DNA of 43,067 bases, from positions 1-43,067 of the forward strand of contig DATNKH010000791.1 in NCBI GenBank assembly GCA_035603475.1, read 5' to 3'. Shown piece by piece: positions 3,403 through 7,463 of this stretch; positions within the stretch are counted from its first letter, which is position 1, and every line of letters begins with the position of its first letter. Origin of the DNA: Thermoanaerobaculia bacterium (GTDB lineage Bacteria; Acidobacteriota; Thermoanaerobaculia; Multivoradales; UBA5704). Made by a program: the position numbers and the translations under genes. Under the pieces are notes generated by a model. That model was not told the DNA's origin, ran no database searches, and saw only the letters and a program-made list of their open reading frames with translations.

Positions 3403-3921
3403 CTACTTTGACGCCGGCGATTGGAGGGCCTTGGCGACCGCAGGCGGCAGGTTGCCGATCCGGGCGATGAAGGCGGTGAGGCGCCAGAGATCGGAATCCG
3501 AGTAGTGCGGGGATTGCGGGTACATCCCGCTCATGCGGATGCCGTGCTTCGCGACCCAGAAGAGCTCGGCGTCCGAGTACTGCGATCCGGCCTGTGCGAA
3601 CTGCGGCGCCGGCGGAAAGAACGTCACACCGTAGTCGCTGGGATGTCCGGGAGCGCCGTGGCAGCCGACGCAATCGTTCATGTAGAGCTTGCCCCCGGCC
3701 ACCAGGGTGGCATCCGCATGGGGCAGGGGATTCGGCATGGTCTGCATGGCCGCTGCTCGCCGCCGCACGGAGGCGTGAACCGCAGCGGGCATCAAGCCGG
3801 CTTCCCATGCGGCGGGCTTCGCATCGGCGGCCACCTCCATGAGGCCAAGGCCCAGGTAAGTGGCCGTGGCGATCGCCAGCAGGGCAAGCGCGCAAAGAGA
3901 GCCCGCGATCAGGTGCTTCAC
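3403..3921 (-). CDS. Membrane-anchored c-type cytochrome, tandem paralogue
   Basis: Haem motif CVGCHG. It shares blocks with 2875-3378 (AVHASVRRRA, AGGKLY..C.GCHG, FW..KHGIR.SGM, LP P.V). The track ORF extends to 4047. Alignment with the paralogue favours the GTG at 3921 (VKHLIAGSLCALALL = anchor helix), preceded by a G-rich SD-like stretch. Confidence 0.7.
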   Translation of the reverse strand: MKHLIAGSLCALALLAIATATYLGLGLMEVAADAKPAAWEAGLMPAAVHASVRRRAAAMQTMPNPLPHADATLVAGGKLYMNDCVGCHGAPGHPSDYGVTFFPPAPQFAQAGSQYSDAELFWVAKHGIRMSGMYPQSPHYSDSDLWRLTAFIARIGNLPPAVAKALQSPASK

Positions 3922-4085: not shown

Positions 4086-6374
4086 GTGAAGCTTCCCTGG
4101 GCAATCCCTGAAGCTTCTCGCAGGTTTCTCTCGTCGGAAGGGCGTTCATCGCCGGCCGGCGGGCCGCGGCCAGCCGAGGCGGCGCATCGTCATGGGAGAG
4201 CTCGAAGCTCCTCGCCCCGTCGTTCCCCCGGCTCCCGGCGCCGTCGTCTTCGGTCCATTCCGCTTCGACGCCGCCGACGGAGCGCTGTTCGGGACGGTGC
4301 CGAGGTGCCGTTGCCGCCCCGCGCCCTGGGCGTGCTGGCGCTCCTGGTCGAGCGCGCCGGCAGGCTGGTGCCCAAGCAGCTCCTGCTGGACACTGTCTGG
4401 AACGACGCCGTCGTCACCGAGACCTCGCTCACCGAGGCGGTGAGCGTGCTGCGCCAGGCGCTCCGCGACAATCCCCAGGCACCGACCTACATCCAGACGG
4501 TCCACCGCCGGGGCTATCGCTTCATCGCCGCGGCTGAGCCGCAAGCGCCGCGCATGCTCCACGAGCCGATCAGGGCCGGCAGCCGGCTGCCCCGGAGGAC
4601 CGGCCTGGCGCTGGCCATCGCGGCGGCGGCGCTCGCCGCCGCCCTCGCGGGCATGTGGCAGTCACTGCGCCGGCCGGCCCCGCTCGCCGGGACGGAGACA
4701 CCCCGGCGCCTGCTCATCGGCATCCCGCCAGGCGCCGTCCTGGATGCCGGCTTGGCGCCGGCGCTTGCCCTCTCGCCCTCCGGCGAGCAGCTGATCTTCG
4801 TGGCGCGCGAAGGCGGCACGCAGCGGCTGTACTTACGCGCTCTGGACCGTTTCGAGGCCAGCCCGATCGTGGGGAGCGAGGGGGCCGCGGCGCCTTTCTT
4901 CTCACCGGACGGTGAGTGGGTTGGCTTCTTCGCCCACGGCAAGCTCGAGAAGGTGGCGCTCGCCGGCGGCGAGCCGCTGGCCGTCTGCGACTCGCCTTAC
5001 CCCTATGGCGCCAGCTGGGGCGAGGATGGCTCCATCTTGTTTGCGCCCGATTACGCCTCCGGCTTGCGCCGCGCCGCCGCCGCGGGCGGCCAGCCAACCG
5101 TGCTCACCACCCCTGATCCAAGGGCCGGCGAGATCGGCCACCGCTGGCCGGAGGTGCTGCCGGGTGGGCGTGCGGCCCTGTTCACGGTGTGGCGGCGTGG
5201 TGGCTGGAAAGACGCCTCGGTCGAGCTCCTCGACCTCCAGACCGGTCGTCGCAGGGAGCTCATCCGGGGAGGAAGCTTTGCCCGCTATGCGCCCACGGGT
5301 CACCTCGTCTTCGCCCGTGCCGGCGGGGCACAAGGCTTGGCGGCGGTCGCTTTCGACCTGGGTCGGTTGGCGGTCCGCGGATCGCCCGTCGCCGTGCTCG
5401 ACGGCGTGCGCACCGACCCGGCCCAGGGAGCCGGCCAGTTCACCCTGTCGCGAGACGGCACGCTGGTGTACCTCCCGGGCGGACCCCAGGGCAACAGCAG
5501 GGCGGTCTACCTCCTTGCCCCCGCCGGCGGCGGACGGGCTCTGCCGCTGCCGGCGCGGTCGTACCGCAACCTGGCGCTCTCGGCGGACGGCCGGCGGCTT
5601 GCCTTGACGGTGCGCGAGCTCGATCGCTCGGAGCTCTGGGTCTCGGAGATCGATCGCGGCAGTCTCTCCCGCCTGACCTACGAGGGCGACAGCATCGAGC
5701 CGGTCTGGAGCCCCGACGGGCAATGGATCGCGTTCGCCTGGGCGCGCGGCGGACGCCACGAGATCTTCCGCGTCGCTGCGGACGGCAGCCGTCCGCCCGA
5801 GCGCCTCCTGGGTGGCGGCGGCAACATCCGTTTCCCGACGTCCTTCTCGCCCGATGGCAGGCTCCTCGCCTTCACCGAGATCGCTCCCGCAACTGGTGCC
5901 GACCTCTGGGTGCTGCCGCTGGGGGGAGCTCCGTGGCCTTTCTTGCGTACGGGTTTCAACGAAGCAGGGGCGCGCTTCTCGCCGGATGGCCGCTGGCTCG
6001 CCTACGAATCGAACGAGTCGGGGAGCATGGAGGTCTATGTGCGCCCCTTTCCCGGGCCGGGCGGGAAATGGCAGATCTCGGTGGGAGGTGGTTCGCTGCC
6101 TGCGTGGTCGGCCGACAGCCGTCGCGTCGTCTATCGCAGCGGGACCAAGCTCATGGCGGTGGAGCTGACCCAGGACGCGGCCGGCCGCCTGTCTGCCGGT
6201 CCGCCGCACCAGGAGCTCGACGAACCGGAGCTCGACCGCTTCGCCTTGCGCCCGGACGGGCGCAGCTTCCTGGTCTTTCGGCGAGCCTCGGCGGAGCCGG
6301 AACGCCTGCACGTGGTCCTGGGCTTCGGCAGAGAGCTCGCCCGCCTCGCACCGGCGGGCGGCCGTGCTCCTTAG
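4086..6374 (+). CDS. CadC/OmpR-type winged-helix regulator - TM helix - periplasmic TolB-like (PD40/WD40-like) beta-propeller, with a probable frameshift near 4290
   Basis: wHTH core VPLPPRALGVLALLVERAGRLVPKQLLLDTVWNDAVVTETSLTEAVSVLRQALRD...YIQTVHRRGYRFIA. TM helix GLALAIAAAALAAALAGMW. Repeated FSPDGEWVGF / WSPDGQWIAF / FSPDGRLLAF / FSPDGRWLAY blades. The first wHTH strands (VVFGPFRFDAADGALF) are encoded in another frame (ORF 4192-4443). Confidence 0.75.
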   Translation: MKLPWAIPEASRRFLSSEGRSSPAGGPRPAEAAHRHGRARSSSPRRSPGSRRRRLRSIPLRRRRRSAVRDGAEVPLPPRALGVLALLVERAGRLVPKQLLLDTVWNDAVVTETSLTEAVSVLRQALRDNPQAPTYIQTVHRRGYRFIAAAEPQAPRMLHEPIRAGSRLPRRTGLALAIAAAALAAALAGMWQSLRRPAPLAGTETPRRLLIGIPPGAVLDAGLAPALALSPSGEQLIFVAREGGTQRLYLRALDRFEASPIVGSEGAAAPFFSPDGEWVGFFAHGKLEKVALAGGEPLAVCDSPYPYGASWGEDGSILFAPDYASGLRRAAAAGGQPTVLTTPDPRAGEIGHRWPEVLPGGRAALFTVWRRGGWKDASVELLDLQTGRRRELIRGGSFARYAPTGHLVFARAGGAQGLAAVAFDLGRLAVRGSPVAVLDGVRTDPAQGAGQFTLSRDGTLVYLPGGPQGNSRAVYLLAPAGGGRALPLPARSYRNLALSADGRRLALTVRELDRSELWVSEIDRGSLSRLTYEGDSIEPVWSPDGQWIAFAWARGGRHEIFRVAADGSRPPERLLGGGGNIRFPTSFSPDGRLLAFTEIAPATGADLWVLPLGGAPWPFLRTGFNEAGARFSPDGRWLAYESNESGSMEVYVRPFPGPGGKWQISVGGGSLPAWSADSRRVVYRSGTKLMAVELTQDAAGRLSAGPPHQELDEPELDRFALRPDGRSFLVFRRASAEPERLHVVLGFGRELARLAPAGGRAP

Positions 6375-6380
6375 GACCCG

Positions 6381-7463
6381 TCAGCCACGCCGAGGACGGT
6401 CCCAGCGGCGGTGCATCCAGAGCCACATCTCGGGGTGATCGCGGATCTCTCGCTCGATGGCTTCCAGGTAGCGCCGGGTGAGCGTGGCGACCGCCGTCGC
6501 GGTGTCCTCGCCGCCCGTGCCGAGGTCGTCGTTCGGGTAGTGGGTCAGTCTCCCTCGACCTCCCTTTGGGCGAGGGGCCCAGGCTCCAGCGGCGTATGAT
6601 TTTGGCCCCTCGCCCAAAGGGAGGTCGCGGGAAACTGACCCACTACCGTCGTTCGCCTCGGCTTGGCTCGCGCCGGCGTCCTCTCCGGAGGCTCCTGCCT
6701 CGTCCGGCAGGATGGGCGGGCGGATCACCAGGCGGTAGCGGCCGCCGGGCTCCGGATAGGCGAAGACCGGCACCACCGGGCAGCCGTCGCGGAGGACGAG
6801 GCGGGCGAGGACGGGGGTGGTGAGGGCCGGGTGGCCGAAGAAGGGGACCAGGATGCCTTCGCGCTCTTGCACGCGTTGATCGGGCAGGATGCCGACGCGG
6901 CCGCCGGCTCGCACGACCTGCAGCATGCGGCGTGCGGCGCCTCGCTTGGGGATGACGGCGTAGCCGAGGCCGCGGCGCAGGCGCGAGAGCTCGCGGTCAA
7001 GGTGGGGGTTGTCGGCCGGACGGGCGACGGTGTGGATGACGCCACGATAGAGGCCGATGGGGCGCCCCGAGATCTCCCAGTAGCCGTGATGGGCGCCGAG
7101 CAGGAAGACGCCGCGGCCCAGGCGCTCGGCGCGGTCGAGGTGCTCCCACCCCTCGTAGCGGAAGCGGCGGCAGAGCTCGACGGCGTCGAAGCGCTCGGAG
7201 GAGATGAGGTCGAAGAGGGCGGCGCCGAAGTGGCGGAAGCAGGCGGTCACCAGGCGGCTGCGCTCCCCGGCGGCGAGCGTGGGGAAGGCGAGAGCCAGGT
7301 TGGCGGCGGCGACCTCGCGGTGCCGCCGGTCGAGGCGGCAGGCCAGGCCGCCGAGGACGGCGCCGAGCGGCCGCGCCGCGGCATGAGGCAAGGCCCGGAT
7401 GATCCCCTTGAACGCCAGGTAGGCGCCGTACTCCAGACGATGCCGTACCGGCGCGTGCTTCAC
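6381..7463 (-). CDS. Lipid A biosynthesis (LpxL/HtrB-type) lysophospholipid acyltransferase family protein, with an insertion
   Basis: 360 aa with the HX4D-type block LGAHHGYWE. The C-terminus IREHPEMWLWMHRRW matches the LpxL-family ...EQYLW.HRRFK ending. It is last in the waaA-lpxK operon. It is about 55 aa longer than I expect for the family because of the 6536-6647 element region. Confidence 0.8.
   Translation of the reverse strand: MKHAPVRHRLEYGAYLAFKGIIRALPHAAARPLGAVLGGLACRLDRRHREVAAANLALAFPTLAAGERSRLVTACFRHFGAALFDLISSERFDAVELCRRFRYEGWEHLDRAERLGRGVFLLGAHHGYWEISGRPIGLYRGVIHTVARPADNPHLDRELSRLRRGLGYAVIPKRGAARRMLQVVRAGGRVGILPDQRVQEREGILVPFFGHPALTTPVLARLVLRDGCPVVPVFAYPEPGGRYRLVIRPPILPDEAGASGEDAGASQAEANDGSGSVSRDLPLGEGPKSYAAGAWAPRPKGGRGRLTHYPNDDLGTGGEDTATAVATLTRRYLEAIEREIRDHPEMWLWMHRRWDRPRRG
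6536..6647. repeat. Palindromic (MITE/REP-like) element: 43-44-bp inverted arms and a 24-nt loop, inside a CDS
   Basis: Left arm 6537-6579 is GTAGTGGGTCAGTCTCCCTCGACCTCCCTTTGGGCGAGGGGCC. The reverse complement of 6604-6646 is GTAGTGGGTCAGTTTCCCGCGACCTCCCTTTGGGCGAGGGGCC. That is 41/43 identical, and one more pair (6536/6647) also matches. Confidence 0.9.

Follow-up and report, generated by a model that had tools for sequence, protein, structure and literature searches.

The analysed stretch of DNA (the window, all 43,067 nucleotides of which come from contig DATNKH010000791.1 of a Thermoanaerobaculia bacterium) carries an LpxL-type lipid A acyltransferase gene with a 112-bp, nearly perfect palindrome inside its coding sequence. 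The locus raises the question of how such a palindrome came to lie within an envelope-biogenesis gene, and whether the gene has survived its arrival. The evidence makes it very probable that the palindrome is a copy of a miniature transposable element with inverted repeats (MITE) that was mobilised in trans by an IS1-like DDE transposase, and that its in-frame insertion into the lpxL-type gene was tolerated. The window belongs to a metagenome bin of 5.70 Mb (908 contigs, 70.8% GC, 88% complete), whose contigs are cited here by numbers preceded by C. The features of the locus are as follows.

6381..7463, minus strand: LpxL-type lipid A (Kdo2-lipid IVA) acyltransferase gene, 360 amino acids plus stop codon, Pfam family PF03279
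6536..6647, no strand: palindromic MITE, A-type copy, 112 bp, from the repeat search, the RNA fold and the genome copies
6528..6535, no strand: left copy of the target-site duplication, GTCGTTCG, 8 bp, read directly and present as a single copy at the empty site of the relative G005
6648..6655, no strand: right copy of the target-site duplication, GTCGTTCG, 8 bp, read directly
6536..6548, plus strand: left terminal inverted repeat, GGTAGTGGGTCAG, an end of the GGnnnTG type (PMC10425158, PMC6807381), from genome and metagenome copies
6635..6647, minus strand: right terminal inverted repeat, CTGACCCACTACC, from genome and metagenome copies
6560..6623, no strand: conserved hairpin core, consisting of CTCCCTTTGGGCGAGGGGCC, a 24-nt asymmetric loop (6580-6603) and GGCCCCTCGCCCAAAGGGAG, common to other subfamilies

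The repeat search placed the arms of the palindrome at 6536-6579 and 6604-6647. They are 44 nt each, 95% complementary and separated by 24 nt, in agreement with the 43+1-nt arms and 24-nt loop described in the first-pass annotation, which had also anticipated a very stable RNA hairpin. When the element was folded as RNA of the coding (minus) strand, the energy was -99.8 kcal/mol, compared with -49.9 ± 4.3 kcal/mol for dinucleotide shuffles (z = -11.75), and none of the 200 shuffles folded as well. The Rfam scan of positions 6400-6800 identified no family; chance microRNA-like hairpin matches were far below the gathering scores. The ends of the element read GGTAGTG...CACTACC. A perfect 8-bp direct repeat, GTCGTTCG, brackets this copy (8/8 match), a feature that was absent from the earlier description.

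The 112-bp element and the 8-bp duplication together amount to 120 bp, so that exactly 40 codons were added to the gene. Frame 1 of the element is free of stop codons in each orientation in 12 of 12 tabulated copies and is the sole stop-free frame in 11 of them; in the copy on C289 the +3 frame is stop-free as well as frame 1. The stop-free frames encode a 37-residue low-complexity peptide and no transposase open reading frame (ORF). The lpxL copy begins at a codon boundary and is read in the stop-free frame 1 as GSGSVSRDLPLGEGPKSYAAGAWAPRPKGGRGRLTHY(P). Across the insert the protein reads ...AEAND, then GSGSVSRDLPLGEGPKSYAAGAWAPRPKGGRGRLTHYPND, then DLGTGG.... The 360-codon ORF at 6381-7463 (minus strand) remains open across the element and the conserved C-terminus, the HPEMWLWMHRRW tail, follows in frame, as had been noted from the first reading of the DNA; the gene ends 52 codons past the insertion site. 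With such a frame, the insert would be translated as part of the protein.

Relatives of the window allele provide the empty site and a later state of the same site. G005 is the closest sampled genome, with 92% protein identity. Its lpxL gene reads GCG AAC GAC GAC CTC, with a single GTCGTTCG and no element, and its protein reads ...QAGANDDLGKGG... at this clean empty site. The insert peptide is absent from all of the best 120 homologues, in keeping with the earlier proposal that the segment had been inserted and was not ancestral to the orthologues. The nearest protein, P0001 (locus L063), is encoded on a soil contig (JGI 3300081506, contig Ga0672856_0001127); it is 96% identical to the window protein, and the tree joins the two as sisters with 88/88 support. 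At the insertion site, ~3810-3850 of the contig, its gene carries a 15-bp, in-frame footprint, CGAACGAC-GGTAGGT-CGAACGAC, in which two copies of the octamer flank the first five bases of the element. The footprint reads GCG AAC GAC GGT AGG TCG AAC GAC GAC and adds GRSND to the protein. As the element family has no target preference, the simplest history is one ancestral insertion followed by a frame-preserving loss of 105 bp in the sister lineage, and the insertion probably predates the split between the two lineages. The occupied allele was recovered a second time by exact-protein look-up, which yielded an identical 360-residue protein on an ENA soil-metagenome contig (ERZ923188 k127_877583); this contig is 99.83% identical to the window, with 7 mismatches over 4064 bp.

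Further copies of the element exist beyond this gene. A BLAST search of the 112 bp against its own genome (G000) resulted in 80 matches, of which the copy on C592 is 98% identical to the lpxL copy. An iterated nhmmer profile extended the family to 248 places on 211 contigs, with 46 copies of full architecture, 28 of them exactly 112 bp long. Copies begin with GGTAGTGGGTCAG and end with CTGACCCACTACC, termini that are conserved in the 46 genome copies and in more than 80 metagenome copies. In 22 of 37 clean-ended copies the 8-bp flanks match at six or more of the eight positions, as against 1 of 37 for the adjoining outer 8 bp, and the octamers that were duplicated differ in sequence from copy to copy. 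Versions shortened to 40-60 bp still have both ends and the duplication; they look like A-type internal deletions of the hairpin tip in which GTTTCCC...GGGAAAC is kept. The orientation of copies relative to flanking genes is unbiased (17 same and 15 opposite in tandem contexts), and convergent and divergent contexts both occur. The family thus has the properties of a MITE: a length of 112 bp, inside the MITE range of about 50-800 bp, the lack of a transposase ORF, inverted repeats at the termini, a duplication of 8 bp and variable sequence, and dispersed copies for which the relative G005 has empty sites (in lpxL and in an M20 peptidase gene). Together with the related DDE-transposase element described below, a candidate source of the enzyme, these properties bear out the first-pass view of a MITE-like palindromic element inserted in a coding region.

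A number of the family places (55 of 248) lie within 100 nt of contig ends, and in a fragmented metagenome bin a repeat copy could have been wrongly joined into the lpxL contig. We give practically no credence to such an assembly artefact, because the target duplication is perfect and the in-frame continuity exact, the second assembly, with a different k-mer naming, has the same junctions with 7 single-nucleotide polymorphisms nearby, and the footprint of the sister lineage is at exactly the same site.

The ends of the element (GGTAGTG) also include the tetranucleotide GTAG. The family could therefore be viewed as a REPIN, a GTAG-tagged doublet of repetitive extragenic palindromes (REPs), which is moved as single-stranded DNA by a REP-associated tyrosine transposase (RAYT) of the IS200/IS605 type. 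Such a reading would account for the GC-rich hairpin of ~110 bp, the 40-60 bp hairpin versions with the same ends, the high copy number and the occasional intragenic copies, as GTAG REPs have been described inside genes (PMC3733652). However, the copies are flanked by 8-bp target-site duplications of variable sequence. HUH tyrosine transposases (IS200/IS605) are not known to make such duplications. Moreover, no match to Y1_Tnp (PF01797) was found in the 88%-complete genome, the same ends and duplication length recur in an element that encodes a DDE transposase, and the short versions are those that look like internal deletions of A-type copies. The duplications and the lack of a detected RAYT argue against a REPIN mechanism despite the GTAG ends, and the chance that it applies here is extremely small.

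A candidate source of the transposase was identified at C74:1886-5932 (locus L039 387-4433). The inverted ends of this 4047-bp element, GGTAGTGTCCTAGTTTGAAATC, are 22 nt long, and the 8-bp duplication around it, GGGTCGGC, is perfect; near its right end it encodes a 308-residue transposase, a single ORF with an N-terminal helix-turn-helix and a DDE region. Homologues of the transposase are present in every one of the 9 sampled genomes from the genus, among them an 88%-identical one in G005, and in 20 of the 24 sampled from the family, and several of the homologous genes in relatives adjoin the same GGTAGTGTCCTAGTTTGAA end. The C74 element looks like a cargo-carrying IS1-like element that is conserved across the family of genomes. 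Its transposase scored 31.6 bits against Pfam PF03400 (DDE_Tnp_IS1; cut-off 24.1), with no single stretch passing, and IS1 was the best of six weak insertion-sequence family matches. According to the ISfinder features reproduced in PMC10425158 and PMC6807381, IS1 elements have GGnnnTG ends and direct repeats of 8-9 bp, which the GGTAGTG end and the 8-bp duplication fit; IS6/IS26 elements have the same end motif and 8-bp repeats in the features given there, so that the assignment to IS1 is not exclusive. The passenger ORFs of the C74 element comprise a weak Gp49 (HigB-like) and HTH_3 (HigA-like) pair and three ORFs without a family match. Remnants of IS1-like transposases also occur at C775:571-1401 and C618:5616-5999, 41% and 59% identical to the C74 protein, respectively; one of them has an internal TAA and neither has recognisable GGTAGTG ends.

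The A-type ends extend beyond this genome. A pattern scan detected them in at least 120 metagenome contigs from soil, peat and sediment, with GC contents of 50-76%; the occupied lpxL allele was not among the loci listed. From the matches listed, 81 elements were extracted, 52 of which have a duplication matching at six or more of the eight positions. Many of the A-type elements among these matches continue GGTAGTGGGTCAGTTTGAA, which is identical to the C74 end at 18 of 22 positions, and 33 of the 81 carry the internal core found in the present genome, the others having unrelated interiors. The C74 element and the A-type MITEs share GGTAGTG....AGTTTGAA (18 of 22 positions when compared with the metagenome A-type ends). 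The shared end sequence and duplication length assign the A-type ends to a probable sibling of the C74 element, and it is from these features that we infer which transposase moves the A-type copies.

In the sequence of events proposed here, an IS1-like DDE transposase acting in trans would have mobilised the non-autonomous MITE, cutting the target with an 8-bp stagger. The element would have entered the lpxL-type gene between two codons, where its stop-free frame 1 and the total gain of 120 bp would allow the gene to be read through with 40 additional residues. The sister lineage would later have lost the element and retained the 15-bp in-frame footprint.

Several results weigh against this account. 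The C74 transposase matches the NCBIfam IS1 model (NF033558) with 63.6 bits and an E value of 2e-17, below the curated cut-off of 100, and it also matches the IS6, IS481, IS1595 and ISL3 models, more weakly. A six-frame search of the genome with PF03400 gave nothing at genome-level E-values. No autonomous element with exact A-type ends (GGTAGTGGGTCAG) was found in the 88%-complete, 908-contig genome, in which inverted pairs 600-6000 bp apart and the surroundings of the other IS1-like transposase fragments were searched; nor was one found at 20 transposase loci in relatives or in 120 metagenome loci among the matches listed. The B-type terminal inverted repeat was the only one that these searches recovered. 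As for how the sister lineage lost the element, simply joining its two ends would not yield the 7-bp remnant GGTAGGT. Finally, C847:3603-4445 encodes a second PF03279 paralogue (76 bits), so that loss of the lpxL-type function need not be lethal.

The state of the protein was assessed from the gene and from a predicted structure. The lpxL-type gene is the last in a waaA-lpxK-lpxL string, and genes for Glycos_transf_N and LpxK proteins lie upstream of it on syntenic contigs. The product matches Lip_A_acyltrans (PF03279) with 190.6 bits (cut-off 22.3), and the match is interrupted exactly at the insert, with profile positions 13-256 before it and 263-293 after it. The protein had been estimated to be about 55 residues too long for its family. 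This held only in part: the insertion adds exactly 40 residues, and the remainder is a native acidic linker, present in orthologues, whose length varies widely (orthologue lengths range from 296 to ~340 residues). An AlphaFold2 model built on 51 sequences has a mean predicted local distance difference test score (pLDDT) of 82.9 and a predicted template modelling score of 0.80. The core is confident, and pLDDT falls below 50 only at residues 264-313, which correspond to the native acidic linker and the insert. A confident helix after the linker, residues 318-342, carries the invariant PEMWLWMHRRW residues. The 40 added residues, for which no protein family match was found, are thus predicted to fall in a disordered, length-variable acidic linker that precedes the conserved C-terminal helix. 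Downstream of the insert, 8 synonymous and 3 non-synonymous codon changes separate the window allele from that of the sister lineage, compared with 24 and 7 in the head of the gene, which is weakly consistent with continued translation of a tail that may still be constrained. Since the model places the insert in a naturally disordered linker of variable length, the enzyme most likely still works.

Alternatively, the insertion may have inactivated the gene, in which case the open frame would be a recent accident, the 360-residue product would be non-functional or unstable, and the paralogue would cover the function. The paralogue itself is in favour of this, as are the young appearance of the element copy (98% identical to the one on C592) and the 44-bp GC-rich stem, which in mRNA could impede ribosomes. 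We nevertheless consider inactivation improbable. The reading frame is undamaged, the invariant residues of the C-terminus are preserved, the tail has a ratio of synonymous to non-synonymous differences like that of the rest of the gene, and the insert falls in the disordered linker. In addition, the allele persists in a second population sample in which 7 single-nucleotide polymorphisms have accumulated, and the 105-bp loss in the sister lineage preserved the frame. The paralogue is only ~37% identical in relatives, where it co-exists with an intact orthologue.

Two further observations concern the 3' end of the lpxL-type allele. Its product terminates ...DRPRRG (window 6381-6386), ~10 residues shorter than the G005 and P0001 proteins (...DRPRRAGRPITEAQSS). 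A convergent gene at 4086-6374 (plus strand) ends 6 nt from the lpxL stop codon, so that the two 3' ends nearly abut (window 6374-6383); it encodes a winged-helix Trans_reg_C regulator fused to PD40/Tricorn-like β-propeller repeats.

Inspection of the ORFs that span each copy showed that the lpxL-type gene is not the only one to contain the element in frame. Besides the lpxL copy, four copies are read through in frame within ORFs with coding-like flanks:

C895:4857-4968: in-frame copy in a membrane protein gene, verified by orthologues without the segment
C622:2827-2938: in-frame copy in a gene for an M20/ArgE-like peptidase, verified by orthologues without the segment
C414:1788-1896: candidate in-frame copy in a gene for an AMP-binding enzyme
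C812:2476-2559: candidate in-frame copy in a membrane protein gene

None of the orthologues from five genomes of this genus has the C895 or C622 segment, and on C622 the gene for the M20 peptidase is exactly 120 bp longer than its counterpart in G005, which has the empty site. Most copies of the family are located between genes or at gene ends; ~2% are intragenic, all of them frame-preserving, in a genome that is mostly coding. A large survey found ~90% of MITEs to be intergenic (PMC11602168). That the few intragenic survivors have kept the frame points to selection filtering random insertions rather than to a designed function.

In all five in-frame copies, including the lpxL copy, it is the same strand of the element that is read, which with n = 5 is only suggestive. 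This strand use would fit a domesticated element, one whose mRNA hairpin or 40-residue peptide has a selected role, for example in control of the operon's last gene or as a novel linker or a module for interactions. The hairpin core is also the best conserved part of the element, and 16 of 47 stem pairs have compensatory changes. However, the probability of finding five of five copies on one strand is ~0.06, and the orientation of copies genome-wide is unbiased. The insert is predicted to be disordered and matches no protein family, its RNA matches no Rfam family, the sister lineage lost the element, and the closest genome never needed it. A domesticated role for the lpxL insert is accordingly very improbable, and tolerance of the insertion remains the preferred reading.

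The conservation of the core merits separate consideration. The central ~60 nt (TTTGGGCGAGGGG, the asymmetric loop and CCCCTCGCCCAAA) are the best conserved part across all 248 places, and they sit inside outer arms that differ between subfamilies and yet are self-complementary. The other core-bearing subfamilies include, for example, C2:3516-3602, C763:4576-4664, C899:6648-6733 and C415:10961-11045; their outer arms are sometimes longer than 45 nt and vary from copy to copy, still without loss of self-complementarity. One core-bearing subfamily ends GGTAGTGTCCT...GATTGCCCTTGCC, as in the C74 element. Among the A-type copies, the 16 stem pairs mentioned above have compensatory double changes. 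The presence of one core in differing arms, together with these changes, indicates that termini and core are separate modules and that the arms evolve in concert. It is conceivable, though unlikely, that the ~60-nt core is itself a selected structural module, a hairpin with a function in DNA or RNA that was taken up repeatedly, and that the 40-residue read-through segments are a recurrent source of new linker peptides in proteins of Thermoanaerobaculia. The core could act, for example, as a site for a host factor or a transposase accessory, or as a driver of arm-to-arm gene conversion.

The lpxL insertion resembles most closely, in its way of working, the palindromic elements of Rickettsia (RPEs; Ogata et al. 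2000, 2002). RPEs, as PMC10969869 outlines, are palindromes of ~100-150 bp inserted in frame in unrelated protein genes, and their segments are read through as extra peptides outside the core of the host protein, whose fold is apparently preserved. The same review describes in-frame MITE fusions as "not unusual", RPEs being the extreme case. The lpxL insert likewise lies outside the protein core, in a linker with pLDDT below 50, and with two further copies verified in frame in real genes the comparison with RPEs drawn in the first-pass annotation proved apt; it is a comparison by description and implies no membership among the RPEs, to which a likeness in sequence would not be expected across phyla. 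The two systems differ in that in-frame copies number 5 of ~248 here as opposed to nearly half for some RPE families, and in that the present family has clear 8-bp duplications, ends of the GGnnnTG type and a relative that encodes a DDE transposase. The hosts differ as well, a free-living soil acidobacterium of 71% GC here and a reduced intracellular genome in the case of RPEs.

The family also shares its small size, terminal inverted repeats, target duplication, lack of a transposase gene, high copy number, mostly intergenic location and occasional in-frame ORF fusions with bacterial MITEs derived from insertion sequences, such as Correia/NEMIS, ERIC, QMITE1 of Coxiella and the MITEs of Anabaena (reviewed in PMC10969869). 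It differs from them in its modular termini and core: other soil contigs have these termini around unrelated interiors, and in the present genome the core is also found within other outer arms. Its likeness to IS1 consists in the GGTAGTG end, which fits GGnnnTG, the 8-bp duplication and the best match of the transposase of the linked 4-kb element, whereas the score below the IS1 cut-off, the single 308-residue ORF and the passengers of that element set it apart.

Overall, the element represents a new MITE family in uncultured Thermoanaerobaculia, members of a little-studied phylum, and its history at one locus is unusually complete; the kind of event is one that was already known, best from Rickettsia; the finding opens no new mechanism. 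The family, with ~250 places, is a main cause of the fragmentation of the bin. Annotators who work on proteins from this lineage should expect low-complexity inserts of 40 residues with the pattern ...PLGEGP...PRPKGG.... Rickettsia-style "coding palindromes" thus occur in free-living soil Acidobacteriota, and if the core were indeed selected and the read-through segments were recurrent linkers, the result would be a system of the RPE kind in a free-living phylum, and one whose transposase can be identified. The empty site, the occupied site and the footprint in three close lineages show how a palindromic mini-transposon may enter and leave an envelope-biogenesis gene without breaking it.

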